A stretch of DNA of 64,000 nt from an uncultured Candidatus Saccharibacteria bacterium (GTDB taxonomy: Bacteria; Patescibacteriota; Minisyncoccia; Phycocordibacterales; JACOZG01): positions 68,579 through 132,578 of the forward strand of contig CAZYLF010000002.1 of the NCBI GenBank assembly GCA_964648765.1, written 5' to 3'. The translations under genes and the position numbers were made by a program. The notes beneath the pieces are model-generated. The model had not been told where the DNA came from. It saw only the letters and a program-made list of their open reading frames with translations, and searched no databases. Below are positions 33,312 through 60,027 of the stretch, in pieces. The stretch's first letter is position 1. Every line of letters begins with the position of its first letter.

Positions 33312-35528
33312 TTACTTGGCATACACAGTCGCGTCGTCGAATTTGATGGAGAGTAAGCGTGACACGCCATCTGAGCCCATCGTCACACCGTAAATCACCG
33401 AGGCGCGACTCATGGTCTCGCGATTGTGAGTAATCAAAATTAATTGGGAATGCTTAGCTAAATTCTCAATCATGTCGCCATACTTACGCGAGTTGGCTTC
33501 ATCAAGCGCGGCGTCCGTTTCGTCTAAAATTAAAAATGGTGGCGGGTTCACCTGCGACATGGCGAAAAGTAACGCGATGGAAGTAAGTGCGCGTTCGCCA
33601 CCCGAGAGCATCTCAAGCGCGTGAACTTTTTTACGTGGCAGATTAACTTTTATCTCTATGCCAGATTTAGTTTCTGTTTCTTCACCAATCGCCATTAAAT
33701 TTGGGATATCTTCACCGCCCTCCTCCATCTCATTTTTTCTTTTGCTCTTTGGCTCAGCGATCGCCTTCAACTGCGCCTCACCACCGCCAAACATTAGTGA
33801 AAAATATTTTTGAAAGTTTATATTAATTTTTTCCAAACCAGTTTGGAATTCTTTATCAATCCGTTCTCGCAATTCATTAATCACCGTCTCAAGTGATGTG
33901 CGGCTCGCCGCCAAATCTGTTAGCTCTTTGGTTAAAAATTCATCCCTCGCCTCCACTTGCTTGTGCTCCGTAAGCACACCGCTTGAATCCACGCCCATGT
34001 CCTCAAGTCTTATCTTTAACTTTTCTATTGCTCGCAAACGCGCAATTTGTTCCTCGCGAGATTCTTCATTTACCTCACTCGGAATTTCCGCCTCATTAAA
34101 ATTTAAAATTTCTTGATCCACCAACACCTGACCCTCGGTCAGTTCTTTTTTAAAAGCATTTTCTTCCAACCTTAATTTATCATCCCGACTTTGCCATAAA
34201 GCCATATGCGAGTCGCTCTCCCGACGGCGCGCTAAGAGCTCATAACTCTCCCGATCTGCTTCCCTGGCCTCATTCATCTTTGACTCTAACTCGATATTTA
34301 TTTGCGCTTCTCTGTTGAGATATTCCTTCTCCTCATTTTTTATTTCACCAATTTTTGATTCCAGTTCATTTTGATCAGATTTAAGTTTCGTTAACTCCTT
34401 GTCTCTCGCCTCAGCCTCATCGTCATTAGATTCTTTTGTTAACTTTTGCCAAAAGTTTTTAATTAAATCTTTAATTTTTTGCCAAGCGCCTTCGGTGGCC
34501 AATCTCTCAATTTCGTCAGTCAAAGTCGCCACCTGATCGCGCGACAAGTAACCACCCTCAACCTCTTTGGGTAGCTTTACTTCAGACTTAAATTGGATCA
34601 AGCCTTCAAGCCGCCCGAGCTGGCGTTCTGAATCTGCTAATTGCTCTCGGCATGCTCTTAAATTAGTTTGGATCTGTCCCAACTCTTTCCGTAAATTACC
34701 CAGCAAATCTTGGTTTGGGTTAGTAACAGAACTTATACTTTTTAATTTTTGCTCTAGATATTTTTTGTCACTTTCTAACTTAGTTTTCTCACTATCAAGT
34801 AAGGCACGAGAATCTTTTAAATACTTGTCTTCAATTTTTAAGTATATTAAATACAGTCTTTTTAATTCAAAGCGTAAATCGTCCGCCTTTTTAATTTTCT
34901 CTACTTCACGGCGCAAAAATTTAAGGTGCGGAGCAATTTCTCGCCTGAGCGATTCCACTTGTTTAATATTTTCTTCAGTTTTCTCTAACTTTTTTTCACT
35001 CTCACTAATCTTCCATTGATAAAGTCGGAGGCCTAGGGCATCTTCCACCATGGTTCGCCGAGAGGCAATATCAGTATTTAAAATTCTATCTGCTTCACCT
35101 TGGCGAATAATTGTGTGCCCTGAGGCACCAAGTGAACCACCAGCCAAAAGTTCCACCACATCCCGCAAACGTACCTCACTGCCGTTAATTGTGTACACGT
35201 TTGTACCATCGCGGTGCACCTCGCGACCAATCGTAAGTTCCGGAAAGTCGACATTAAACTTCCGATCATGGTTATCGAATGTTAGCGTCACTCCGGCGCG
35301 ATTTACTTTACTCTGATTCCCAGCTCCATTAAAAATTAAATCTTCACCCCTCTTACCGCGCAGTGATTTAAGCGACTGCTCACCAAGCGCCCAGCGGAAA
35401 GCTTCCGCCACATTCGACTTGCCCGAACCATTTGGCCCCACCACCGCGGTTACCGGTGCATCGAAAGTTAAAACCGTTTTTTTATTAAAAGATTTAAAGC
35501 CAGAAAGTGTTAACTCTTTAAGCCGCAT
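33312..35528 (-). CDS. smc: SMC-family chromosome segregation ATPase, short form (738 aa)
   Basis: Walker A GPNGSGKSNV. Long coiled coils. ABC signature LSGGERALTSIALLFAM. Walker B FLILDETDAALD. Confidence 0.8.
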   Translation of the reverse strand: MRLKELTLSGFKSFNKKTVLTFDAPVTAVVGPNGSGKSNVAEAFRWALGEQSLKSLRGKRGEDLIFNGAGNQSKVNRAGVTLTFDNHDRKFNVDFPELTIGREVHRDGTNVYTINGSEVRLRDVVELLAGGSLGASGHTIIRQGEADRILNTDIASRRTMVEDALGLRLYQWKISESEKKLEKTEENIKQVESLRREIAPHLKFLRREVEKIKKADDLRFELKRLYLIYLKIEDKYLKDSRALLDSEKTKLESDKKYLEQKLKSISSVTNPNQDLLGNLRKELGQIQTNLRACREQLADSERQLGRLEGLIQFKSEVKLPKEVEGGYLSRDQVATLTDEIERLATEGAWQKIKDLIKNFWQKLTKESNDDEAEARDKELTKLKSDQNELESKIGEIKNEEKEYLNREAQINIELESKMNEAREADRESYELLARRRESDSHMALWQSRDDKLRLEENAFKKELTEGQVLVDQEILNFNEAEIPSEVNEESREEQIARLRAIEKLKIRLEDMGVDSSGVLTEHKQVEARDEFLTKELTDLAASRTSLETVINELRERIDKEFQTGLEKININFQKYFSLMFGGGEAQLKAIAEPKSKRKNEMEEGGEDIPNLMAIGEETETKSGIEIKVNLPRKKVHALEMLSGGERALTSIALLFAMSQVNPPPFLILDETDAALDEANSRKYGDMIENLAKHSQLILITHNRETMSRASVIYGVTMGSDGVSRLLSIKFDDATVYAK

Positions 35529-42963: not shown

Positions 42964-44208
42964 ATGCAAGAAAAAGAGGAGGAGAAAAAGCTGGCCGAGG
43001 ATGATCATAGGAGGATTGGAGCAGAATTGGGTCTGTTCACCTTTTCTGACACCGTTGGAAAGGGGTTACCTCTTTGGACACCAAAAGGGACAACAATTCG
43101 CCGGATACTCGAGCGCTTTATTGTCGACGAAGAAATTCGCCGTGGTTACCAGCATGTTTATACACCTGACATCGCCAAAATAGATTTATTTAAAAAGTCT
43201 GGCCACTATCCATATTACAAGGATTCGATGTACGCCCCGATCAAAATTGATGAAGAAGAGTTTATGCTCCGCCCCATGACCTGCCCACACCACTTTGAAC
43301 TCTATTTATCTAAGCCTCATAGCTACCGCGAGTTGCCAGTTCGGATTGCTGAAATGGGTAAACTCTACCGTTATGAACTTTCCGGCGTGCTCACTGGTCT
43401 CACTCGCACTCGCTCCTTCTGCTTATCTGATGCCCATGTGATCTGTGCTAATCCTGAACAAGCTAAATCAGAGATTGAGCGCGCCCTCTCGCTTATCTTC
43501 TTCATGACCGAAAAATTTGGCTTAAAATCTGGTGAAGACTTTTCATATCGCCTTTCTTTAGGCAACCGCAAAGATGATAAAAAATATTACAAAGACGACG
43601 CCGCCTGGGATGAAGCCGAATCAATTCTCCGTGAAGTTCTAAAAGGTCAAGATGTGCCATTCACTGAAGCGGAAGATGAGGCCGCCTTCTACGGACCCAA
43701 AATTGATATCCAGATGAAGGATGCTCGAGGCAAAGAAGATACGGCCTTCACCGTGCAATACGACTTCGTAATGCCGAAGCGCTTTAATCTTACTTACATT
43801 GATTCTGATGGTCAAACCAAAGAGACGGTGGTGGTACATCGTTCTTCAGTTGGATCACTTGAACGGATCATCGCCTTCTTGATTGAAAAGTATAAAGGCG
43901 CCTTTCCGGTGTGGCTTGCGCCCGTGCAGGTGGCGGTGATTCCGATTGCGGAGGCGCATCAAGAATTTGCTAAAAAAGCTTTTGAAGAATTAAAACAAGT
44001 AAACATCCGCGCCGAAATTAATTTAGATAACGAAACCTTGGGTAAAAAAATCCGCGGTGCTAAGCTCCAAAAGATTCCCTATTTAATAATCATTGGCGAT
44101 AAAGAAGTGACGGCGAATGCCCTCACCGTCGAATCCCGCGACGGCGAAAAGTTAGAAAATATCTCTGTGGGAGATTTAGTAAAAAAGATTCAAGACGCCA
44201 ACAAATAA
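42964..44208 (+). CDS. thrS: Threonyl-tRNA synthetase, catalytic core plus anticodon-binding domain only (no N-terminal TGS/editing domains)
   Basis: Begins at the class-II core (DHRRIGAELGLF...), has motif 2/3 regions and a C-terminal anticodon-binding domain. 414 aa versus about 640 for canonical ThrRS. Confidence 0.88.
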   Translation: MQEKEEEKKLAEDDHRRIGAELGLFTFSDTVGKGLPLWTPKGTTIRRILERFIVDEEIRRGYQHVYTPDIAKIDLFKKSGHYPYYKDSMYAPIKIDEEEFMLRPMTCPHHFELYLSKPHSYRELPVRIAEMGKLYRYELSGVLTGLTRTRSFCLSDAHVICANPEQAKSEIERALSLIFFMTEKFGLKSGEDFSYRLSLGNRKDDKKYYKDDAAWDEAESILREVLKGQDVPFTEAEDEAAFYGPKIDIQMKDARGKEDTAFTVQYDFVMPKRFNLTYIDSDGQTKETVVVHRSSVGSLERIIAFLIEKYKGAFPVWLAPVQVAVIPIAEAHQEFAKKAFEELKQVNIRAEINLDNETLGKKIRGAKLQKIPYLIIIGDKEVTANALTVESRDGEKLENISVGDLVKKIQDANK

Positions 44209-44433: not shown

Positions 44434-44463
44434 CATACTATACTACTTAGTTTAATTTGTCAA
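44434..44463 (-). promoter_or_regulatory. Sigma-70-like promoter overlapping the gyrB stop codon
   Basis: Minus strand reads TTGACA, a 17-nt spacer, then TAGTAT (alternatively TATAGT with a 15-nt spacer). Confidence 0.4.
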
Positions 44464-46490
44464 ACATCCAAGTTGGCCATCTTGGCGTGGGTTTGGATGA
44501 AGATTTTACGAGGTTCAACTTCTGAACCCATAAGCACGGTGAAGGTTTTGTCGGCTTCCGAAGCCTCTTTAATATCCACACGTTTAAGTACGCGCTTCTC
44601 TGGATCCATGGTTGTCTCCCAAAGTTCTTCTGGATTCATTTCTCCAAGACCTTTATAACGCTGCACAGAAACTTTAGCTACCTTAACTTCTGCCTCGGGC
44701 ACGTCCGTTTCAGTCTCCCTTTCAATTAAATCTTCTGGCTTGCCACCCAAACGTTTAACGATTTTATTTTTATCGTCTTCAGAGAATGAATAAACAATTT
44801 CTTTACCCTTTTTAATTTTGAAAAGTGGTGGTTGCGCAATGTATAAATATCCGCCGGAAATAATGGTGGGGAAATGACGATAGAAAAGAGTGAGAAGAAG
44901 CGTGCGGATGTGCGCGCCGTCCACGTCGGCATCAGTGGCGATAATAATTTTGTGATAGCGCAATTCTCCAAGGTCAAAGTTCTCACCAATTGACGTACCA
45001 AGAGCGATAATCAAGGACTTAATTTCTTTAAATGCGAGCATTTTATCGAGCCGCGCACGTTCAACGTTTAAAATTTTACCTTTAAGTGGCAAGATGGCTT
45101 GCGTGCGACGATCACGACCTTGCTTAGACGAGCCACCGGCTGAATCTCCCTCAACGATAAAAAGTTCTGCTTCCTCGGCCTTTTTAGTTTGGCAATCCGC
45201 GAGTTTACCTGGCAACATTAAACCTTCAAGTGCGCCTTTACGTAAGATAGAATCTTTAGCCGCTTTAGCTGCCTTGCGCGCGCGCAGTGCAATAATCACT
45301 TTATTTACAATTGCTCGCGCGTCTTCAGGATTCTCTTCTAAAAAGAGTGAGAGAGAATCACTAAAGGCCGTCTCCACCGCACCACGCACTTCAACGTTGC
45401 CGAGTTTAGCTTTAGTTTGACCCTCAAATTGTGGGTTACGAAGTTTAACCGAGATTACAGCCGTGATACCCTCGCGCACATCGTCGCCAGTGAAGGCGCC
45501 GTCGGCATCTTTAGCCATATTATTCTTCTTAGCGTAATCATTTAAGCCACGAGTGAGCGCTGTGCGGAAACCGGTTAAGTGTGTGCCACCTTCGGGCGTG
45601 ATGGTGTTGTTGGTGTAAGTAATTTCGCGAGCAATAATGTCGTCGATGTATTGGAAAGCAATTTCAATATTAATTTCATTTACCTCCTTCTCCGCGTAGA
45701 AAACATTTTTATGTCCCGGCTTCTCATTTTGGTTTAAGAAGCGCACGAGCGACAAAAGTCCACCTTCAAAGTAAAATGTTTTAGAAGGTAAAGGTAAATC
45801 CAATTCTCTTAAATATAAAACTTTTTCAGCCTCAATTTTGCCGGTGTAACCACGGGCATCAATGGCGCGAACTCTTAATTTTTTAACTAAATAGGCTTGG
45901 CCTCGGAGATGATTGGTGATCCTATTAAAATCGTAAATTAAATCTGAGAAGATCTGGGCGTCAGGTTTAAAGGTGATCACCGTGCCGTGCTCTTTAGTCT
46001 TGCCGATTTGTTTAACATTTGCCTTCTTTTTACCACGAGCAAATTCTTGAAAGTGAATTCCACCTTCACGATACACATGAGCTTGTAACCACTCAGAAAG
46101 CGCGTTCACCACCGATGCTCCCACACCGTGGAGACCACCGGAAATTTTATACCCCTCACCTTCAAACTTTCCACCTGCGTGGAGCACCGTGAGCACTGTC
46201 TCGAGTGCCGAGACTCCAGTCTTTTTATGTATCGTCACGGGGATACCGGCGCCGTTGTCGGCTACGCGGATCACATCACCAGGCAAAATTGCCACCTCGA
46301 TTTCATCACACGAACCGTTCATCGCCTCATCGCGTGAGTTGTCGAAAATTTCTACGAGCAAGTGATGGAGGCCATCAGTGCCTGTGGAGCCAATATACAT
46401 ACCTGGGCGCTTACGCACCGGTTCTAGGCCCTCAAGGACTACGATATCTTCAGCGTCGTATTTACGTTGTTTAGGGCTCTCTTTAGGCAT
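44460..46490 (-). CDS. gyrB: DNA gyrase subunit B
   Basis: GHKL N-domain LHAGGKFEGEGYKISGGLHGVGASVVNALS. TOPRIM EGDSAGGS...PLKGKILNVE. Ends ...ANLDV-TGA. Confidence 0.96.
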   Translation of the reverse strand: MPKESPKQRKYDAEDIVVLEGLEPVRKRPGMYIGSTGTDGLHHLLVEIFDNSRDEAMNGSCDEIEVAILPGDVIRVADNGAGIPVTIHKKTGVSALETVLTVLHAGGKFEGEGYKISGGLHGVGASVVNALSEWLQAHVYREGGIHFQEFARGKKKANVKQIGKTKEHGTVITFKPDAQIFSDLIYDFNRITNHLRGQAYLVKKLRVRAIDARGYTGKIEAEKVLYLRELDLPLPSKTFYFEGGLLSLVRFLNQNEKPGHKNVFYAEKEVNEINIEIAFQYIDDIIAREITYTNNTITPEGGTHLTGFRTALTRGLNDYAKKNNMAKDADGAFTGDDVREGITAVISVKLRNPQFEGQTKAKLGNVEVRGAVETAFSDSLSLFLEENPEDARAIVNKVIIALRARKAAKAAKDSILRKGALEGLMLPGKLADCQTKKAEEAELFIVEGDSAGGSSKQGRDRRTQAILPLKGKILNVERARLDKMLAFKEIKSLIIALGTSIGENFDLGELRYHKIIIATDADVDGAHIRTLLLTLFYRHFPTIISGGYLYIAQPPLFKIKKGKEIVYSFSEDDKNKIVKRLGGKPEDLIERETETDVPEAEVKVAKVSVQRYKGLGEMNPEELWETTMDPEKRVLKRVDIKEASEADKTFTVLMGSEVEPRKIFIQTHAKMANLDV

Positions 46491-46557: not shown

Positions 46558-47688
46558 ATGGAAATCGACATAAATTCTCCTGAAGAGGCTAAGTTGCGAG
46601 CCAAGCTAGCCGAGCGCAAAGATGCTGAGGCGCGACGCATGGAGCGATTTCTCGCTATGCCCGATCTCGCTCGTACGCCCGGTAGTCCGCTGCATGAAGT
46701 GGTAAGTCGCGCGCTCAAAGTTGAGGGGTTGAAGGACTTCGATATTATTAAAATCCCCGAGATCGTCCCCTCTTCCGTTACCTTCGACCTCTTCAACATG
46801 CCGCCGGGTCATCCAGCTCGCAGTAAGTCCGACACTTATTATGTAGACGACGATCACATCCTGCGCACTCACGACACCGTGATGTGGTACTACTATTTAA
46901 ATCATCCCGAGACTAAAAAGAAAATTGAGAATAAAGAAAATTTAGGTGTAATTTGTTACGGCAAAGTTTATCGCAAAGATGAAATTGATCGCCGCCACAT
47001 GAACGTCTTTCACCAATTCGGCGGGTTATTTTTAGTCCCTGATGATAAGCAAACTATTAAACCTGAAGATTTAAAATCTGTGCTTTCTGACGTGGCCAAG
47101 GCGATCTTCGGTGATAAAGTTAACTTTAGATTTTACGATCACAACTTCCCCTACACTGATCCGAGCTTCGAGATGGAAGCAGAAATTAATGGTCAGTGGA
47201 TTGAGATGCTCGGTTCCGGTTTACCTCGCAAAAGTGTGTTAGAAAACTTCGGTTTAACCGGTTACAACGGTTGGGCCTTCGGCTTCGGCCTTGAGCGCTT
47301 AGCAATTTCTAGTATGAGTTTGCCCGACATTCGCCTACTTTGGTCTGATGATGAGCGCGTAAAAAAACAACTTAAGTTGGGGCAAAAATTCCAAGAAGTT
47401 TCTAAATTCCCACCCATCACCCGCGACATCTCCTTCATTGTGCCCAACACCTTCGTGGTCAACGACTACTTCGATCTCATCCGCGAACTCGGCGGTGACT
47501 TAGTGGAAGAAGTAACTTTACTTGATAAATACGAAAACGCTGCCAAATTCGGCGAAGGTAAATTAAGCTACACTTACCGCATCATCTATCGCTCCATCGA
47601 GCGCACTCTCACCACCGACGAAATCGAACCCATCCAAAACCAAATCATCACCGAAACAAAAAAACAGTTCGTCGCGGAGATTAGGTAA
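46558..47688 (+). CDS. pheS: Phenylalanyl-tRNA synthetase alpha-type catalytic subunit with a C-terminal FDX-ACB-like anticodon-binding domain (monomeric, mitochondrial-type architecture)
   Basis: Class-II motifs including FNMPPGHPARSKSDTYYV and GWAFGFGLERLAI. C-terminal ~100 aa (FPPITRDISFIVPNTF...LSYTYRIIYRSIERTLT) resembles the FDX-ACB domain normally found in PheT. Confidence 0.85.
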   Translation: MEIDINSPEEAKLRAKLAERKDAEARRMERFLAMPDLARTPGSPLHEVVSRALKVEGLKDFDIIKIPEIVPSSVTFDLFNMPPGHPARSKSDTYYVDDDHILRTHDTVMWYYYLNHPETKKKIENKENLGVICYGKVYRKDEIDRRHMNVFHQFGGLFLVPDDKQTIKPEDLKSVLSDVAKAIFGDKVNFRFYDHNFPYTDPSFEMEAEINGQWIEMLGSGLPRKSVLENFGLTGYNGWAFGFGLERLAISSMSLPDIRLLWSDDERVKKQLKLGQKFQEVSKFPPITRDISFIVPNTFVVNDYFDLIRELGGDLVEEVTLLDKYENAAKFGEGKLSYTYRIIYRSIERTLTTDEIEPIQNQIITETKKQFVAEIR

Positions 47689-47689
47689 A

Positions 47690-48439
47690 TTATTTCTTGA
47701 TCGCAAAAAAAACTTTATCCAATAGAATACTTTTGACATACTTCCAATCAAAACCATTTTGCTTTAGGAGCTTCTCGTTCTCATCATCAGTAAACACTAA
47801 GTTGGGTTCTTCATCTCTTAAATAATGTTTAGTCCATTCAACGAATAAGTCTGGTCTATTGTGCTTCGTATAAAACAGGGATAAATCAAATAAGATTTGA
47901 GCTAAATCCTTTATTCTTTGATCTCCAGTATTCCCCAGTTTTTCCAATACTGCAAATACTCCGTGTGGTTTTAGAATTCTACTGACCTGCTCATAAATAA
48001 CCGCTCGCTTAACCGGTGGAAAATTATGTAACACCCATGCAGTGTAAACAGCATCGACCGATTCATCAGGGATAGTTTTTATAACTTCCTCAATGTCACC
48101 AACTTTCTTTTCATAATTATAAGACTCAAGATAAGCATCGGCGCGACTTAATAATTCCTTATCAAATTCATTCAGAATAAATTTTGCTTTTGGAAATTCT
48201 TTCGCCACTAATTTCGTGGTAAATCCATACCCTGCCCCAATATCAAGAAAAATGAGTGAAGACCCCCCATTTATACTTTCCTTAAAATGACTCTTAAGAG
48301 ATTCCGAAATGGTTTGTTGTAATTTACCGTGAGAAGGAAATACTTTTCCGAAAAGGTCATATTCTTCAACAAGAGTATCTGAGAAATTGTTTGTTTTCAT
48401 AAATTTTATTTTATTTTCCAGCATTCCATAATTCTTCAA
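47690..48439 (-). CDS. Class I SAM-dependent methyltransferase
   Basis: Motif I FLDIGAGYGFTT. Acidic motif II FILNEFD. Confidence 0.7.
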   Translation of the reverse strand: MKNYGMLENKIKFMKTNNFSDTLVEEYDLFGKVFPSHGKLQQTISESLKSHFKESINGGSSLIFLDIGAGYGFTTKLVAKEFPKAKFILNEFDKELLSRADAYLESYNYEKKVGDIEEVIKTIPDESVDAVYTAWVLHNFPPVKRAVIYEQVSRILKPHGVFAVLEKLGNTGDQRIKDLAQILFDLSLFYTKHNRPDLFVEWTKHYLRDEEPNLVFTDDENEKLLKQNGFDWKYVKSILLDKVFFAIKK

Positions 48440-49541
48440 AAAACCTCATATAAGAATCAGCGATTGATTGATTTTTAACCTGGATTATGGTTGGCTCTTC
48501 TTCAAAGATTTGAGTAATAACAGTATCGCCAAAAACATTGTAATTAGCCGGATTTTGAATACTCCTCGGCATGCTTCTAAATTGGTTTAACTCAGGGTAC
48601 TCCTTTGCCAACCTTCGATCGGTTTCGCCTTGATCATAAGTAACCATTTTCCAAATTATCCGCTTTTTAATTCTTAATTCTTCATAGTGTTTATAGAACT
48701 CGCCCATCGGAGCAAACCAAGCGTCGCCGACTGCTCCGGCAACATGAATAGTTGACCCCTCCGGCAATCTCCTTATTAAACCTAAATGATATGCCTGGAA
48801 TTGTTCTCGCCCCTTAAACACCTCAATAGATTCATCGCGCCTGGCAATGTCTAAAATGAAAGATTTAATTTCTGGATTTTCTTGTCCAGAGAAAAACTGA
48901 ACAGTATTTTGGTCTTGTAAGATAGACCCATTTTTGAGAAAAATAATTCTATCAGCAACCGACATAGCAAATGACATGTGGTGAGTCACAATAATCATTG
49001 TATAACCGTCTTTTGCTAATGCTCGAATAAGATCAAGCACGCTTTTCGTAAGTTCAGGATCAAGGGCAGAGGTAATTTCGTCTAAAAGAAGAACTTTCGG
49101 TTTAACCATAACGGCGCGCAAAAGTGCGACTCGTTGTCTTTGCCCTCCAGAAAGTTCCGCTGGATAATTATTTGAATATTCACTCAGACCAAAGCGTGTT
49201 AGCAGATTCTCTGCTTCTTCTTTAATGGCTTTTCCCTGACTTTTTGATTTTAATTTTGGTGCAAGTGTGAGATTTTGTAAAATTGTTAAGTGTGGCCAAA
49301 GCGTATATTCTTGTGATACATAACTAGCTAACTCATCTTTATCAACTCCCAATACTCCTTCATCTAAAGAGATAAGCCCCGCAAGAACTCGAAGTAAGGT
49401 GCTTTTGCCAGATCCACTTTGCCCTAGAACGCAGACGATTTCGCCCTGAGAAACAGTGAAAGAGACATTCTTTATGCCACGAAAATTACCGCGATCTGTA
49501 TACTTTACTGTTGCATTGTTTATTTTAAGCATACACAGCAA
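48411..49541 (-). CDS. ABC transporter ATP-binding protein with a ~130-aa C-terminal extension
   Basis: Walker A GQSGSGKST. Signature LSGGQRQRVAL. Walker B LLLDEITSALD. Extra C-terminal domain of unknown type. Confidence 0.85.
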   Translation of the reverse strand: MLCMLKINNATVKYTDRGNFRGIKNVSFTVSQGEIVCVLGQSGSGKSTLLRVLAGLISLDEGVLGVDKDELASYVSQEYTLWPHLTILQNLTLAPKLKSKSQGKAIKEEAENLLTRFGLSEYSNNYPAELSGGQRQRVALLRAVMVKPKVLLLDEITSALDPELTKSVLDLIRALAKDGYTMIIVTHHMSFAMSVADRIIFLKNGSILQDQNTVQFFSGQENPEIKSFILDIARRDESIEVFKGREQFQAYHLGLIRRLPEGSTIHVAGAVGDAWFAPMGEFYKHYEELRIKKRIIWKMVTYDQGETDRRLAKEYPELNQFRSMPRSIQNPANYNVFGDTVITQIFEEEPTIIQVKNQSIADSYMRFFEELWNAGK

Positions 49542-51963: not shown

Positions 51964-52039
51964 TGGAGCCGGTGGTCGGGCTTGAACCGACGACCTACGG
52001 TTTACAAAACCGTTGCTCTACCAACTGAGCTACACCGGC
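51964..52039 (-). tRNA. tRNA-Thr (anticodon UGU), CCA encoded
   Basis: Minus strand reads GCCGGTG-TA-GCTCAGTTGGTAGAGC-A-ACGGT-TTTGTAA-ACCGT-AGGTC-GTCGG-TTCAAGC-CCGAC-CACCGGC-T-CCA. All four stems pair. Anticodon loop U-U-UGU-A-A. Confidence 0.9.
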
Positions 52040-53743: not shown

Positions 53744-55486
53744 TTACTGAGGCTCGAAAGTTAGTGGTTGATATTGGAATTCAATATACTTATCATAGGT
53801 CCCACTATCACCACAAACTCCAACCCTAACGCCATACGGTGAATTATCTTTTATTTCAATAAGCTTAACGGGTACCATAATCGAAAAATCAGCCGTATCT
53901 GACATATTTCCGCCAATCACAGTACCTTTAGGAGCTAAGGTAACGCTGCTGATACTCACTCCACCATTTGCGTCTGTGTAATCACAAGTTTTATCAGAGT
54001 TATCATCATTATTGAAATAACATCTAACAAGTTGCTCAATAGGTGTAGCTGGCAAAACAGTACCTGAGGCATGAGTTGGCGAATGATCTTTATTTAACCC
54101 CTTATCTGTAACTTTAGAGATAACTTCCTTGACACAGAAGGTTAACGGTTCATCCGTATTATTACTAATTTTGACAGATGGAGACCTTACCGATAGACCA
54201 GAATTGTGAGAATCGATTTTGATTATACTTGAACTAACACCCAGTGTGTTAGCGTCAATCGGAGGTGGTGTAAGTGTTGGCCAAAAGGTAGCAGAAACTG
54301 ATCGATTTTGATTCATATTCACATTACAAGTTGCAGTTCCACCTGTTGGATCACAGCCAGGCACATCACCTGTCCAACCCTTAAACGAACTTCCTGACGC
54401 CGGAACTGCTGTTAAGGTAACGAGAGTATTTGAAGCATAATCATCCTCACATGATCCAACATTTGAATTACAATTAATATCACCGGATGGGTCATTAGGA
54501 ACTTCCCCAGTTGAAGTAACTACCCCATCACCATTAATATTTAAAGATAATTCTTTGGTCGGACTTGCGGCCGTCACATCTACCGAGCAAATTGCGTGGC
54601 CATATTGGGTATTTGGCTGGAGAGTTGAATCAAAAACCTCAACGTCTAAAGTAACCTTGCCATCAGATGGCAAAACACTTGGCTCTAATGTTGTAAAACT
54701 TTGGGCATAAGTTATTGGATTACCAGACTCAAAAGGTATAATAGCGCCTGCAACATTAACTCGGTAAAACATCCCACTTAAAGAACTATAATTACCAGTC
54801 ACCGTAAGATTCCAAGTTATGTCATTTGGCCCACTGCCAAGTATTGCAGGATTGGGAGTACCGCTACAACTCACATTTAGGCTATCAACTAAAACGCAAC
54901 CTTGAGCCGGTAAGCCACTATCGCCTGGGCAAAAATCAATCCACCCAATCACATCTCCCCCCCACGCTTCACCATATAATGAATTAGGAAAAGATTGGCC
55001 CGGGCTAGAACCAACGGCAACACCGTAACTCTGCGGTTCTGTTTGATCACTAGACATCTTAATCCACCCATCCCAACCGCCAAGTTGAATATTGCTTTTA
55101 AGCGCCCCTGAACATCCACTTAAAAACACGGAGCAAGCTCTTGCCCAGCCCGTTACTGGACTACCAGTTATTGGCCCAGTAATTTTTGTTGAATGCTGTG
55201 CAAGATTAGCAGGATAATTCGGTGGTGCAGGATACGGCCCAGGTGGGTCTAATCGGATCCAACCAATATTGTTGTTCCAAGCATAACCAAGAATATTACC
55301 AGTGGCGGTTTCAAGTCGGACTCTATTTGGCCATGAGCCAAAAGCTATCCAGCCCACATTTGAACTCCAAGCCCAACCTGAGATATTTTGAACTTGTGGT
55401 GGTGTTTGTGCGTAGGATGTAAAGTTGCCACTAAACCACCCGCACACTACAAAAACTAATATTAGAGCAATTATAGACTTCCTCAT
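53744..55486 (-). CDS. Secreted repeat protein with a GW-rich module and an InlB B-repeat-like domain
   Basis: Signal peptide. GWAWSSNVGWIAFGSWP...GYAWNNNIGWIRLDPPGPYP...GWARACSVFLSGCSG...GWDGWIKM. Domain TLVTLTAVPASGSSFKGWTGD...NVNMNQNRSVSATF. Confidence 0.6.
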   Translation of the reverse strand: MRKSIIALILVFVVCGWFSGNFTSYAQTPPQVQNISGWAWSSNVGWIAFGSWPNRVRLETATGNILGYAWNNNIGWIRLDPPGPYPAPPNYPANLAQHSTKITGPITGSPVTGWARACSVFLSGCSGALKSNIQLGGWDGWIKMSSDQTEPQSYGVAVGSSPGQSFPNSLYGEAWGGDVIGWIDFCPGDSGLPAQGCVLVDSLNVSCSGTPNPAILGSGPNDITWNLTVTGNYSSLSGMFYRVNVAGAIIPFESGNPITYAQSFTTLEPSVLPSDGKVTLDVEVFDSTLQPNTQYGHAICSVDVTAASPTKELSLNINGDGVVTSTGEVPNDPSGDINCNSNVGSCEDDYASNTLVTLTAVPASGSSFKGWTGDVPGCDPTGGTATCNVNMNQNRSVSATFWPTLTPPPIDANTLGVSSSIIKIDSHNSGLSVRSPSVKISNNTDEPLTFCVKEVISKVTDKGLNKDHSPTHASGTVLPATPIEQLVRCYFNNDDNSDKTCDYTDANGGVSISSVTLAPKGTVIGGNMSDTADFSIMVPVKLIEIKDNSPYGVRVGVCGDSGTYDKYIEFQYQPLTFEPQ

Positions 55487-58400
55487 TTACAATCATCAGG
55501 ATTACCTTCACAAATACCTGGAAAATTAACTAAGAGATTGCTTTTCTTGACGTTATTTGGATGAGTCGCAGTTTCATTACACACATACACCTTGAGATCA
55601 TATGGGCTGGCAAGCTCAATATCAGCAAGACATGTTGATTGATAGATATGAATATTAACTTGACTAGAACTACCAGCATTTACAGTGCCTGATGGCCCCG
55701 CAATATCATTACTTGGAGTACATATTTGTAAACCATTTCCATCACTAGTTTTAAAATCACAAACTGGATGAGAAACTTGACCACAACCAGAATCATTTAT
55801 AATAGTCTGCATAGATTTTCCGAAATAATCAGGATCTTGGTCTCTGGAAACAATTGAGCTAATACAAAACTTTGCATTAGATGTGTCATCATTAAAGATC
55901 CTAAGGGCAGCAAATTGTGGATCAGTTGATGTAATTTGAGTTGTGGCTGAAACTCTGAAATTGATTCCGCTTGCCGTGGTCTGACCAAAAGTAGCGATTA
56001 CGTCTTTTACACCATCCACATTTACAGTACAAGTATTACCACTACAAGCTGAACCTGCTCCCGACCAAGTAACACTCCTATTTAATCCTGCTGGATTTGC
56101 AGTAAGTGTGACACTTGTCGTGGCTGTGTAAGTTTTGGAACAACTTGCAGTACAATTAGTTCCGAGTCCAGTTACGTACTCTCCAGGATTTTCACCAGCC
56201 ACATCTAGATTTAGAATAAATCTTTTAAACGTAGCTGTAACTGTTTTATCTGAATTCAGTGTGCCTAGATTACAAAGAATTCCTGGTCCACTACATCCTC
56301 CACCGCTCCATCCGGTAAACACGGTTGGCGACAAAGTTGAAACAGATGGTACGGAAAGTACCACACTTGTGCCAGCAGGGTAAGATTTCGTACAGCCGGA
56401 AGCGCCATTTGTTAGACAACTTATTCCAGTACCATTCGTCACTTGACCGTTTGTCACGCCATCCAATTCTTGCAGATTGACTGTCACAGTATAATTCGTT
56501 CCCCCGCCACATGGTGGAGAAGAGCAACCACCGTCATCAAGGTCGAATTTCCCTATTGATGTTTGAATCCCATTATTTTTAGTAAATATAAATGTTTGGG
56601 TGTCACAAGCGCCGGTAGTGGCTGTGCCACAAGCAGAACCGGTCCACGGACTAACAAACTTGCTACCCGAAACAGGATTACCAGTTACTGTAATAACAGT
56701 ACCTAGATCATACATATAACAACCCGCTACCTGTGGAGCACATGGAGAACCTACTGGTGACACCGCAATATTTCCATCTCCAGTACCAATCTTGATGGTA
56801 CTAAATTGATATTTCTGAACATCAAATCTGGCAATTGCCAAATCTAAAGAACCACTTTTAGGAAATGTGAACGACGCAGTATTGCAGGAACCAACCGTGG
56901 CATTACTACAAGCGACTCCAGTCCAAGGAGAAATAAACTTACTACCTGAGCTTGGGTTGGCAGTAACGGTTACCAAAGTTCCAGCTGTGTACCTATAACA
57001 ACTAGGAGATGGGGTTGCGCACGGTAAACCTGCTGGTGACACACTAATTGAACCTGTACCAGTGCTTTGTGGGCTAATCACTGTCCTTAATTCAAAAGTA
57101 GGAAGAGGTTGGGTCACAGGAGGTAAATTTGTACAGTGAGTACCCCCAGCTTCATCACAAAAACTTACCCAACCAAGATTATTTGATCCCCAAGCATAAC
57201 CCACAAGATTGCGTGCACCAGAGGTTGCATCTACCTTAACTGCTACACCGTTTGACCAGGTTCCGTTCATTTTGATCCAACCATCCCATTCCCCACGTAG
57301 AGCCACATGACGCATATTACCCATACAACCAGTTACAAATACCGAACACGCCCGTGCCCAACCTTCAATTTTTTGATTTGGAGTTACACCAGTAAGACGA
57401 GAACTGTAAGGTGGGGTATTAGAATCAGGGTAGGGCCCTGAAGGATCAAATTCTATCCAACCAATATTCGGTCCCCAAGCGAAACCATTTAAATTATTGT
57501 TATTGTTTTCATCAACTTTTACCCCGTACTCATCAAAGAATGAAGTAGAGTTGGCTGGTCCGAAATAAATCCAACCCATTCCAGAACTCCAAGCCCAACC
57601 TGTTAACCTATCTGTACCAGTAGAATGATAATTTCCATAATTGTTAGTGATAGTGAACATCCCACTGCGACCTGGTGCAATATCTAAAGCTCCAATATTT
57701 GCCGTGTCTAATTCATAATAATAATTACCAGTTGGAACAGTGGGAACAAGGCTGGCATAATGCCCATCATTTACTCCCAAAGAAAACGGTGCTTGTTGAG
57801 GAATTCCCTGTTCAGTAAAAAGTTGAGCTGAGATACTTTGCGTGGCTGGAACTATTGATGGGGCATTCCATCTGACTGAATTTATAGGTAATGGCGAGAC
57901 ACCGGTACGCCAAATTTCACCTGATTGTGGAAAACTAACGCTAATCTTTAGCGATGCAATTTTAATCTTTCCAAGATAGTCACATGTGATTGGTACGATG
58001 CCCGACACGGGTAGAGCACAAACTTGTATGTCATAGTCACCGCTTGGATAACCACCCGCTTGAGCTAAACTTTGCGGTATTGTAATTGTAAAATGATCAT
58101 TGAATGAAATTGGTGTGGGAGTAAAATCGTGGAATATAGCTGGTTGCGGAACACTATTAAATGATTGATGGAGGGTAACGGTAAACCGACTAGTATTTGG
58201 AATATTATTGTTATTCCAATTAACCAAATAATTTTGACTGATATAAAGTGGTAATGTACTTGGAGAACTTGTTGGACTAGTAATACTTATACTTGGTGCA
58301 CCACTGCCAACAATATTAAACACTCCGCTCTCTCCACTTGAATTTGGACGACCAAAAGCTGAGCTCAAACGATACTTGTAGGCACCTGGAGCATTTGGCA

Positions 58401-60027
58401 CCGGATTAACTACATAATTCCCCGCACTAGGATTGGTATTAGGGATATCACGCACTGTGGCTACCACCTGTCCAGTGCTCGCATTTAATCTTTCAAGATT
58501 CAACTTTTCTGTGGTTGGCAAATTGTTGCTCCAGGCCACAACTTGGTTTGAACCTGCTGGCCAATTTGCACCAGCTAGTGGTGAGGTGAAATTGATATTA
58601 TAAGTTGGCGCTGTGTACGGCACCACATCAAACACACCACTTTTGGCCACTTGAACTAGTACACCAGAAACAAGATTCACTGGGGCAACTTCAAAATAAT
58701 ATTTACCGGCAGTAATATCGCTTGGCAAAATTTGGATGCTCTGATTGCTATCATTTGGACTAGTAACTTGTAGTATTTGAGTGCCAGCCGAGCTCCAGGT
58801 ATTAAACTTCATTAATCGGACATTCATTTGTGTGTTTGCGAGAATATCGGGCGTTGTTTGCCAAGTCACATTTACAAAATCTCCACCCATAAATTGGCTT
58901 GAATTATATTGACTTTGGCCAGATGGTGGCCACTGGTCCCCGCCCAAAGGAGCAGTTACTGTAGCATTATAAATACTAGGATTTACCATCTTGATAGTCA
59001 CCGGTGACACGACTTTGGCACCTGTAAACACTCCTGGTGCAGAAATTTCTCTGACCTCTAAAGTGTAATCACCCGTTGGAATATTTTGTAAAGTAGAAAT
59101 CTGTGGCACAACCCCATAACAAGTGCCATTTGCGGCAACACCACTTGATCCAGCAAGATAGGTGTTAGCGGTAGCGGTTTTTCGTATAACATAAGCCTCA
59201 ACGTTTCTTGTTGGGTTAACACCAATACAACCGATTGTTGCTGGCGAAGCTGTATTATTCCAAAAAGTTGTCCCTGTACTCCCGTCATATGGAGCACTTA
59301 AAGTAATATTACTTGGAGCAACAATAGTAAATGGTGGGGTAAATCCTGTTATGGTGTAACTGCCATAACTACGATAAAGCTCGAGCTGGAATTGCCCTCC
59401 TCCCCATGCGTTAGCGGGAACTGGGATCGTCATTGATCCAGTATTGGGAACATTTGATCCTTGGGCCACCGATAGACCAGTTGTTAAACTATAGAGTTTC
59501 CAATTAAGAGTAAAACTTGAAGAAACATTGGGAGAAGTCCAGGTGACGTTGGCTGAAGTCCCTGCCGTCCACTGCGTTGAAGAACTGGGATTAGAGATGT
59601 TAATCAAGCGAGCGCTGGCCGTTGGCGCCACAGTAATCACTGGAGTTTGGCTTTCATAAAGTGTCCCAGGCAAACCATACCTTAAACGAAGAAAATACTT
59701 CCCTGGCATAATCACCCCAGGAGAATTAAAAAGTGGTGGGACAGTGTAAGTAAAACTTTTAGGATCTGGATTTGGTTGAGAAAAATCGCTAAAAATAGTG
59801 TACTGAAGGGAAGGGAAATCTTTATTAACTAAATATGCCCGATTGGGTGATGTCGAAATATTTGGGCTAGACCAACTCACAGTGTAAGTTTGGCCAGGCT
59901 GCCAAGTTGTATCAGATGATGGTGAAGTAAACGTTGCTGCGAGTGGCGTCTGAGCTTGGGTTAAAGAAAACAAACCAAAAAATACTACGAGACTAACTCC
60001 GGAAGATAATAATATTTTTTTTAACAT
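55483..60027 (-). CDS. Giant (1514 aa) secreted surface protein: N-terminal tandem ~100-aa beta modules, GW-rich module, tandem InlB B-repeat-like domains, Cys-rich C-terminus
   Basis: Signal peptide. Repeats xFTSPxxxxxWxxGxxxxVxW occur at least 5 times. GWAWSSGMGWIYFGP...GFAWGPNIGWIEFDPSGPYP...GWARACSVFVTGCMG...EWDGWIKM. Repeated TVTANPSSGSKFISPWTG..C...F units. Confidence 0.65.
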   Translation of the reverse strand: MLKKILLSSGVSLVVFFGLFSLTQAQTPLAATFTSPSSDTTWQPGQTYTVSWSSPNISTSPNRAYLVNKDFPSLQYTIFSDFSQPNPDPKSFTYTVPPLFNSPGVIMPGKYFLRLRYGLPGTLYESQTPVITVAPTASARLINISNPSSSTQWTAGTSANVTWTSPNVSSSFTLNWKLYSLTTGLSVAQGSNVPNTGSMTIPVPANAWGGGQFQLELYRSYGSYTITGFTPPFTIVAPSNITLSAPYDGSTGTTFWNNTASPATIGCIGVNPTRNVEAYVIRKTATANTYLAGSSGVAANGTCYGVVPQISTLQNIPTGDYTLEVREISAPGVFTGAKVVSPVTIKMVNPSIYNATVTAPLGGDQWPPSGQSQYNSSQFMGGDFVNVTWQTTPDILANTQMNVRLMKFNTWSSAGTQILQVTSPNDSNQSIQILPSDITAGKYYFEVAPVNLVSGVLVQVAKSGVFDVVPYTAPTYNINFTSPLAGANWPAGSNQVVAWSNNLPTTEKLNLERLNASTGQVVATVRDIPNTNPSAGNYVVNPVPNAPGAYKYRLSSAFGRPNSSGESGVFNIVGSGAPSISITSPTSSPSTLPLYISQNYLVNWNNNNIPNTSRFTVTLHQSFNSVPQPAIFHDFTPTPISFNDHFTITIPQSLAQAGGYPSGDYDIQVCALPVSGIVPITCDYLGKIKIASLKISVSFPQSGEIWRTGVSPLPINSVRWNAPSIVPATQSISAQLFTEQGIPQQAPFSLGVNDGHYASLVPTVPTGNYYYELDTANIGALDIAPGRSGMFTITNNYGNYHSTGTDRLTGWAWSSGMGWIYFGPANSTSFFDEYGVKVDENNNNNLNGFAWGPNIGWIEFDPSGPYPDSNTPPYSSRLTGVTPNQKIEGWARACSVFVTGCMGNMRHVALRGEWDGWIKMNGTWSNGVAVKVDATSGARNLVGYAWGSNNLGWVSFCDEAGGTHCTNLPPVTQPLPTFELRTVISPQSTGTGSISVSPAGLPCATPSPSCYRYTAGTLVTVTANPSSGSKFISPWTGVACSNATVGSCNTASFTFPKSGSLDLAIARFDVQKYQFSTIKIGTGDGNIAVSPVGSPCAPQVAGCYMYDLGTVITVTGNPVSGSKFVSPWTGSACGTATTGACDTQTFIFTKNNGIQTSIGKFDLDDGGCSSPPCGGGTNYTVTVNLQELDGVTNGQVTNGTGISCLTNGASGCTKSYPAGTSVVLSVPSVSTLSPTVFTGWSGGGCSGPGILCNLGTLNSDKTVTATFKRFILNLDVAGENPGEYVTGLGTNCTASCSKTYTATTSVTLTANPAGLNRSVTWSGAGSACSGNTCTVNVDGVKDVIATFGQTTASGINFRVSATTQITSTDPQFAALRIFNDDTSNAKFCISSIVSRDQDPDYFGKSMQTIINDSGCGQVSHPVCDFKTSDGNGLQICTPSNDIAGPSGTVNAGSSSQVNIHIYQSTCLADIELASPYDLKVYVCNETATHPNNVKKSNLLVNFPGICEGNPDDCK

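Follow-up and report, generated by a model that had tools for sequence, protein, structure and literature searches.

A single-chain phenylalanyl-tRNA synthetase of mitochondrial format as the likely housekeeping enzyme of Patescibacteria

We describe a gene for a single-chain phenylalanyl-tRNA synthetase (PheRS) in a 64-kb stretch of an uncultured Candidatus Saccharibacteria bacterium (assembly GCA_964648765.1, contig CAZYLF010000002.1, positions 68,579 to 132,578). We refer to this whole stretch of analyzed DNA as the window. The gene probably encodes the housekeeping PheRS of a member of the Patescibacteria (the Candidate Phyla Radiation, or CPR; Paceibacteria-type) in the single-chain format of mitochondria. 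The architecture of the protein, its conserved residues, its predicted fold, its conservation and synteny, its broad occurrence across Patescibacteria and the lack of a pheT gene close by are all directly supported. In textbooks, (alpha-beta)2 is the form that PheRS takes in all bacteria, and the single-chain enzyme is a peculiarity of organelles. Sequences of the kind described here are abundant in public databases, and the novelty lies in the bacterial occurrence of a known, mitochondrial-type single-chain PheRS. The full-text literature that we searched contained no paper describing a bacterial single-chain PheRS; many subscription journals lie outside it, and an earlier mention is possible.

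Pfam scans of the 376-amino-acid (aa) protein place the PheS-type domain tRNA-synt_2d (PF01409) at aa 58-271 (E=2.9e-50) and FDX-ACB, the ferredoxin-fold anticodon-binding domain (PF03147), at aa 282-376 (E=2.5e-24, model positions 1-94 of 94). Both E-values are far outside chance. An earlier prediction, made from the sequence, had read the gene as a PheS catalytic core fused to FDX-ACB, had offered a profile search against these two families as the check, and had named a lack of FDX-ACB similarity, together with a pheT gene elsewhere in the genome, as the outcome that would speak against it; both families matched, FDX-ACB over its full length. The C-terminal domain additionally matches positions 691-798 of 798 in the bacterial PheT model TIGR00472 (pheT_bact). 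The catalytic core holds motif 2 (GKVYRKDEIDRRHMNVFHQ), the FPYT strand of the phenylalanine pocket and motif 3 (GWAFGFGLERL, aa 238-248). PPGHPARSKSD lies at aa 82-92 and FPPITRDISFIVPNTF begins at aa 283, and the two class-II motifs quoted in the original prediction, GHPAR and GWAFGFGLERL, are thus both present in the open reading frame (ORF).

The same prediction held that the N-terminal coiled coil of PheS is missing, and this is borne out by the Pfam scan, which found no match to the PheS N-terminal domain (PF02912) in the 376-aa protein, nor to the PheT domain B3_4 (PF03483). The arm of canonical PheS, a tRNA-binding coiled coil of ~100 aa, is replaced by a short remnant. In a BLASTP alignment, residue 5 of the single-chain protein pairs with approximately residue 60 of Escherichia coli PheS, and the segment comprising aa 1-57 aligns solely to E. 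coli residues ~59-118. Because the alignment begins at about residue 60, some 55-60 residues of the N-terminal coiled coil are missing. AlphaFold predicts helices in this segment at aa 8-19, 23-33 and 44-53, each with pLDDT >90, while aa 270-286, which span the linker between the two domains, are without regular secondary structure in the model. A protein 100% identical to the one studied here (P0001) is recorded on public contigs of up to 222,593 bp. A scan for promoters and terminators around the gene returned nothing exceeding the shuffled expectation.

The residues expected of a working active site are retained. Across 81 diverse homologues, H85, R88, R103, R139, H147, F151, Q153, E216, G219, G221, G242 and R247 are invariant. 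Motif 2 contributes the arginine R139 and motif 3 the arginine R247; the FHQ triplet, T200 and A240 show little or no variation. The last two residues correspond to Thr251 and Ala294 of E. coli PheS, whose numbering in the BLASTP alignment is offset by one as the initiator Met is left out. Thr251 and Ala294 are the residues that we take to set the size of the phenylalanine pocket in E. coli, given the genetics of pheS specificity mutants. Since both the catalytic and the specificity residues are conserved, we read the protein as a functional, phenylalanine-specific synthetase, which would charge tRNA-Phe with phenylalanine.

The original prediction had called the enzyme mitochondrial-type, and whole-protein scores, per-domain scores and the predicted fold all favor human mitochondrial PheRS (mtPheRS), although the protein misses the cut-off of the mitochondrial family model and belongs to a separate bacterial clade (see below). 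In a sequence search of the PDB with the whole protein, human mtPheRS was found with an E-value of ~5e-59, compared with ~1e-30 for the best bacterial PheS. Scored by itself, the catalytic core reaches 129 bits against mtPheRS and 110 bits against the best bacterial PheS; for the isolated FDX-ACB domain, the values are 66.8 bits against human mtPheRS and no more than 42.3 bits against any bacterial PheT chain. As each domain is by itself closer to mtPheRS, the presence of an extra domain is not the cause of the mitochondrial likeness. An AlphaFold2 model built from the 81 homologues has a pLDDT of 96.0 and a pTM of 0.91. In Foldseek comparisons, the best full-length superpositions of this model are on human mtPheRS in its closed state (5mgw, TMq 0.82, root mean square deviation 2.4 A; 3cmq, 0.80). 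The open, tRNA-bound human structure scores lower (3tup, 0.60), and bacterial PheS superposes on the catalytic core alone.

Single-chain PheRS is widespread. We found over 6,500 homologues, of which the 120 highest-scoring have the two-domain architecture and are ~375 aa long. The closest of these, 72-100% identical and again ~375 aa long with the same two domains, come from metagenome bins of Patescibacteria/CPR named Giovannonibacteria, Paceibacterota, Nomurabacteria, Doudnabacteria and Liptonbacteria; NCBI mostly labels the homologues ‘hypothetical protein’ and JGI labels them ‘PheRS alpha chain’. Among 1.84 billion representatives of 50%-identity clusters, only 211 clusters match at E<=1e-30, and the full-length matches listed span both domains. 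When a single genome of each GTDB species was scanned, at least 557 stretches matched, and the best 80 of them served for locus comparisons. Almost all of these 80 are labeled Patescibacteria; among them are Yanofsky-, Zambryski-, Taylor-, Jorgensen-, Harrison- and Kaiserbacteria as well as a closed 808-kb chromosome (OZ246418.1). Hundreds of related species share the single-chain enzyme. Across the 80 genomes, the median identity to the query is 64% for PheRS, 61.5% for GyrB and 43.8% for threonyl-tRNA synthetase (ThrRS), and single-chain PheRS is thus as conserved as GyrB. The gene order is also kept: gyrB is the immediate neighbor of the PheRS gene in 57/80 loci, and a 75%-identical relative (L002) retains the block dnaE-thrS-gyrB-PheRS. 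One groundwater Parcubacteria metagenome-assembled genome (MAG), JACQLT01, carries two PheRS copies on its contigs 1 and 3 (L022 and L037), 69% and 68% identical to the query, which may reflect a real duplication or a mixed bin.

In bacteria, pheS and pheT are normally adjacent. The original prediction had stated that no pheT is nearby, and a tblastn search of the window with E. coli PheT (from NC_000913.3) agrees, its sole match being the FDX-ACB part of the PheRS gene (aa 696-794 of the query to 47386-47685, E=4e-7). E. coli PheS likewise matches only the single-chain gene in the 64 kb, and Pfam scans of 20 of the larger ORFs of the window found no B3_4, B5 or tRNA_bind protein. We extended the PheT search to 10 kb around the gene in the 80 related genomes (~1.2 Mb in total), and no B3_4, B5, B6/7 or catalytic-like PheT segment was found within 10 kb of the gene in any of them. 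Published marker counts for 17 Parcubacteria genomes (Nelson & Stegen 2015, PMC4508563, Tables S1 and S2) point the same way. Their tRNA-synt_2d marker, labeled ‘pheS’, is present in 17/17 genomes, with one match in 15 and two matches in 2, and their FDX-ACB marker, labeled ‘pheT’, occurs in 16/17, with no genome showing more than one match. If a PheT with its usual C-terminal domain stood beside a fused gene, a second FDX-ACB match per genome would be expected, an argument that presumes the single PheS-type protein of these genomes to be the fused form, as it is in all relatives that we have seen. Moreover, because PheRS activity is indispensable, a lone tRNA-synt_2d protein must be the catalytic chain of the cell’s PheRS. 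Together, these observations strongly suggest, short of proof, that the single-chain enzyme is the sole and monomeric PheRS of the cell, and it is likely that it acts without a beta-type partner.

Some relatives encode a small companion protein. In 11/80 related loci, an ORF that mostly measures ~135 aa lies directly upstream of the PheRS gene on the same strand, separated by a gap of 1-111 bp. A lone OB-fold domain of the tRNA_bind family (PF01588, E ~1e-16) makes up the protein. Among NCBIfam models, it matches positions 41-151 of PheT best (110.8 bits), followed by the YtpR tRNA-binding family, and it is 34-44% identical to domain B2 of E. coli PheT. The family of this B2-like protein has ~1,300 members, the top 120 of which are all 98-162 aa long, and several members share contigs or adjacent locus tags with single-chain PheRS (e.g. 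KW788_00320/00325). JGI names its members ‘PheRS beta chain’. Neither tblastn nor the family profile hidden Markov model (HMM) found such an ORF in the window. We hypothesize that, in part of the family, the B2-like protein may assist PheRS in trans by binding tRNA.

The companion gene is one of several points that weigh against a sole, self-sufficient enzyme, and it bears on an alternative in which the single chain is an alpha-like subunit that needs a partner encoded elsewhere in the genome; a domain would then have moved between the subunits, with the beta subunit retained. The partner could be a trimmed beta subunit retaining B1, B3/4, B5 and B6/7 without B8, or the small B2-like protein itself. 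The presence of the latter upstream of PheRS in 11/80 loci, and the size of its family, mean that parts of the PheRS family may not be strictly one-component. Our searches reached the window and the 10-kb flanks, and a pheT-like gene may lie at a distance in the rest of the genome. A beta-like protein without both B2 and B8 would evade the FDX-ACB count, and CPR PheRS-beta proteins lacking B2 have been reported (Mukai et al. 2017, PMC5370408), from which it follows that other CPR lineages keep a beta subunit. The published core of 202 ortholog families of Parcubacteria (PMC4508563), in which pheS is found in 16/17 genomes and no pheT or COG0072 row appears, is weak evidence on this question, because rows for alaS, ileS, proS and glyS are missing as well. 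The supplement of Tian et al. 2020 contains no COG0016/COG0072 data. We nevertheless judge a partner-dependent subunit to be unlikely. B3_4, B5 and catalytic-like PheT segments are absent within 10 kb in all 80 genomes, the B2-like ORF is absent from the window, and the chain lacks the N-terminal coiled coil that the (alpha-beta)2 enzyme employs. The predicted full-length fold also equals that of the self-sufficient human enzyme, although the closed conformation of the model may echo the training of AlphaFold on 3CMQ, which was probably among its training data.

We built a neighbor-joining (NJ) tree of the catalytic core with 100 bootstraps, rooted with E. coli PheS alone; this root is not reliable. 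The CPR sequences and a few other bacterial proteins form one clade in 96/100 bootstraps, apart from the eukaryote-type and viral sequences. The original prediction had proposed a phylogeny against mitochondrial FARS2 and bacterial PheS; in our tree, the protein falls in the bacterial clade and not in the eukaryotic one. Thus, the PheRS of the window is mitochondrial-like in design, yet of a distinct bacterial lineage. The single-chain PheRS proteins of viruses lie outside the CPR clade in this tree and cluster with eukaryote-type sequences instead. Because the root is untrustworthy and the eukaryote/virus group is never monophyletic, we make no claim on the direction of transfer.

The viral genes are numerous. 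A scan of IMG/VR with an alignment identified 45 loci (L094-L138) with single-chain PheRS, many on contigs of 200-536 kb; the longest contig measures 1.47 Mb. Several of the contigs are giant-virus bins, and several besides the longest exceed 500 kb. A viral scan with the phage-like protein P0279 as a single query returned no match. The viral homologues are 32-41% identical to the query. The bacterial clade also includes non-CPR or divergent members, which we note individually. The first, from an Oligoflexia MAG, has two domains and 414 aa (L008:10001-11245), and the second is a 398-aa, core-only paralogue without FDX-ACB from a non-CPR bacterium with two-component and glycoside-hydrolase genes (L010:10001-11197). 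A third, the divergent 456-aa homologue P0131 (L012:9463-10833), has 13 in-frame TGA codons that are read as Trp in the database translation. Several of these codons fall at invariant or nearly invariant glycine columns, which indicates genetic code 25 and, in turn, a CPR host of the Gracilibacteria/Absconditabacteria type.

The scores against curated family models also count against a simple assignment, and they bear on a different alternative, that the gene is a PheS-derived paralogue with another job, in a genome that also carries a conventional pheS/pheT pair at some other place. The protein scores 223.9 bits against TIGR00469 (pheS_mito, mitochondrial PheRS; cut-off 258.35), 155.5 bits against TIGR00468 (bacterial PheS; cut-off 237.45) and 222.4 bits against NF051887 (the PheS-related mystery ligase SrmL; cut-off 300), which is below the cut-off in each case and explains the ‘hypothetical protein’ labels at NCBI. 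Its match to the bacterial PheT model TIGR00472 likewise falls short of the curated cut-off. Three marks of canonical bacterial PheS are lacking: a TIGR00468 score above the cut-off, the PF02912 domain and an adjacent pheT. The near equality of the SrmL and mitochondrial scores speaks for a SrmL-like paralogue, and two-domain and core-only relatives (Oligoflexia P0124 and P0128) occur in non-CPR bacteria that presumably have a normal PheRS. The match to SrmL spans both domains (aa 47-366 to model positions 19-345 of 349), and our literature search found no paper on SrmL. However, when ten diverse representatives of the family were scored, 6/10 passed TIGR00469, whereas 0/10 attained the SrmL cut-off, and one 57%-identical relative (P0121) passes TIGR00469 with 264.3 bits. 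In the 15/17 Parcubacteria genomes with a single tRNA-synt_2d protein, that protein must supply the essential PheRS activity. Conservation at the level of GyrB, the housekeeping synteny and the retained phenylalanine-specificity residues likewise argue for a synthetase, and we consider a paralogue with a separate function very improbable.

Single-chain PheRS is also found on contigs of huge phages and giant viruses and in eukaryotic organelles, which raises the question of recent horizontal gain from a eukaryote, giant virus or phage, or of a mis-binned contaminant. We rejected eukaryotic contamination and recent transfer, and we give this explanation almost no credence: the gene sits amid bacterial housekeeping genes on a 222-kb contig, the same neighborhood recurs in dozens of species, and the sequences form their own bacterial clade with only 32-41% identity to viral homologues.

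The two domains of the single-chain enzyme can be assigned putative roles. The class-II PheS module would activate phenylalanine with ATP and pass it to A76 of tRNA-Phe, while the ferredoxin-fold domain, which in ordinary bacteria forms the end of the beta subunit, would read the GAA anticodon. The resting state may be closed, the anticodon-binding domain lying against the catalytic domain as in human mtPheRS. If the comparison of 3CMQ with 3TUP is a guide, binding of tRNA would require an outward rotation of the C-terminal domain, hinged at the linker (aa 272-281). This movement would bring the domain to the GAA anticodon as the acceptor end goes into the active site. Because the chain holds no B3/B4 editing domain, we infer that there is no cis-editing of Tyr-tRNA-Phe and that accuracy would rest on the synthetic site.

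The genes around PheRS are listed in Table 1. Immediately downstream, on the opposite strand, lie the methyltransferase and ABC transporter genes that the original prediction had described. The 20 ORFs scanned with Pfam include the housekeeping genes rpoB, rpoC, dnaG, rpoD, dnaE, thrS and gyrB, together with genes for an SMC-like protein, RNase R and a release factor. Since the TIGR00418 match of the ThrRS begins only at model position 164 and the protein has only two Pfam domains, this second synthetase lacks the TGS and editing domains; a ThrRS of 413 aa stands at the same position in the relative L002. The presence of two adjacent synthetases without editing modules suggests a broader loss of proofreading in the lineage. 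No tRNA-Phe gene was found by a tRNA scan of the window or of 60 related loci. Many relatives have a tRNA-Thr(TGT) gene or a tRNA-Met/Asp cluster no more than 10 kb from PheRS. Elsewhere in the window, a protein of the SMC_N family (33312-35528, minus strand) is only 738 aa long; bacterial SMC proteins are usually ~1,100-1,200 aa. Two adjacent large ORFs of 580 and 1,514 aa (53744-60027, minus strand), with InlB B-repeat-like and Kre9/KNH Ig-like domains, may encode surface proteins.

Table 1. Coordinates of the single-chain PheRS gene, its domains, its neighbors in the window and related features on other contigs
Feature	Position	Strand	Remarks
Single-chain PheRS gene, complete	46558..47688	+	ORF list, ATG to stop; 376 aa plus stop
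N-terminal helical segment, aa 1-57	46558..46728	+	no PF02912; short remnant at the site of the canonical arm
Class IIc PheS-type catalytic core, aa 58-271	46729..47370	+	PF01409
Inter-domain linker, aa 272-281	47371..47400	+	between the two Pfam envelopes
FDX-ACB domain, aa 282-376	47401..47685	+	PF03147, TIGR00472 match
S-adenosylmethionine (SAM) methyltransferase, downstream of PheRS	47690-48439	-	
ABC ATPase (ABC transporter), downstream of PheRS	48411-49541	-	
gyrB, upstream neighbor	44460-46490		divergently transcribed
ThrRS (thrS)	42964-44208	+	414 aa; TIGR00418 model 164-563; tRNA-synt_2b and HGTP_anticodon only
tRNA-Thr(TGT), sole tRNA of the window	51964-52039	-	
B2-like ORF in related loci	L021:9588-9992		also in L018, L019, L020, L025, L027, L030, L048, L057, L061 and L075
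Phage-like single-chain PheRS P0279	L006:10001-11047		340-kb phage-like contig

Our results indicate that a very large bacterial radiation uses single-chain PheRS as its housekeeping enzyme, in addition to the single-chain PheRS genes carried by huge phages and giant viruses. This bears on the origin of mitochondrial PheRS and on the extent to which a free-standing genome can dispense with aminoacyl-tRNA proofreading. A more far-reaching and rather doubtful proposal is that the single-chain enzyme is both the ancestral and the only PheRS of most Patescibacteria, and that the organellar and viral forms descend from Patescibacteria or from a shared mobile gene pool. If this were true, mitochondrial PheRS would have been acquired ready-made, and not fused from alphaproteobacterial alpha and beta pieces in early eukaryotes, and a whole bacterial radiation would translate without cis-editing of Tyr-tRNA-Phe; the neighboring ThrRS without editing domains would then suggest that the loss of editing extends beyond PheRS. 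There are also consequences for annotation. At NCBI the enzyme is mostly ‘hypothetical’, at JGI the name ‘PheRS beta chain’ is given to the 135-aa B2-like fragment, and marker sets score FDX-ACB as ‘pheT’. Because the fused gene satisfies both the ‘pheS’ and the ‘pheT’ completeness markers, a missing beta subunit goes unnoticed. Finally, at ~345-376 aa, these proteins offer a naturally minimal PheRS for synthetic translation systems.

The core is homologous to the PheS of the canonical (alpha-beta)2 enzymes of E. coli and Thermus thermophilus, with 31% identity to E. coli PheS, as is the C-terminal domain to B8 of PheT. Unlike in those enzymes, B8 is fused to the alpha-type chain, the N-terminal coiled coil of alpha is missing, and domains B1-B7 of PheT, including the B3/B4 editing site, were not found near the gene of the window. 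The PheRS proteins of huge phages and giant viruses (IMG/VR and ENA contigs) have the same two-domain architecture at ~340-400 aa and are presumably auxiliary genes rather than the sole cellular enzyme. The nearest parallel in design is the mtPheRS of human and yeast (FARS2; 3CMQ closed, 3TUP open with tRNA), which shares the layout of a PheS core and a C-terminal FDX-ACB in one chain and likewise has neither a coiled coil nor an editing domain. Identity to the human enzyme is only 31-32%, and the 376 aa of the protein in the window compare with 405-415 aa in the crystallized human protein; the human match is split into two stretches, which points to an insertion that the bacterial protein does not have. 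In addition, mtPheRS is an organellar enzyme, whereas the PheRS of the window is encoded on a bacterial chromosome and appears to serve all cellular translation.

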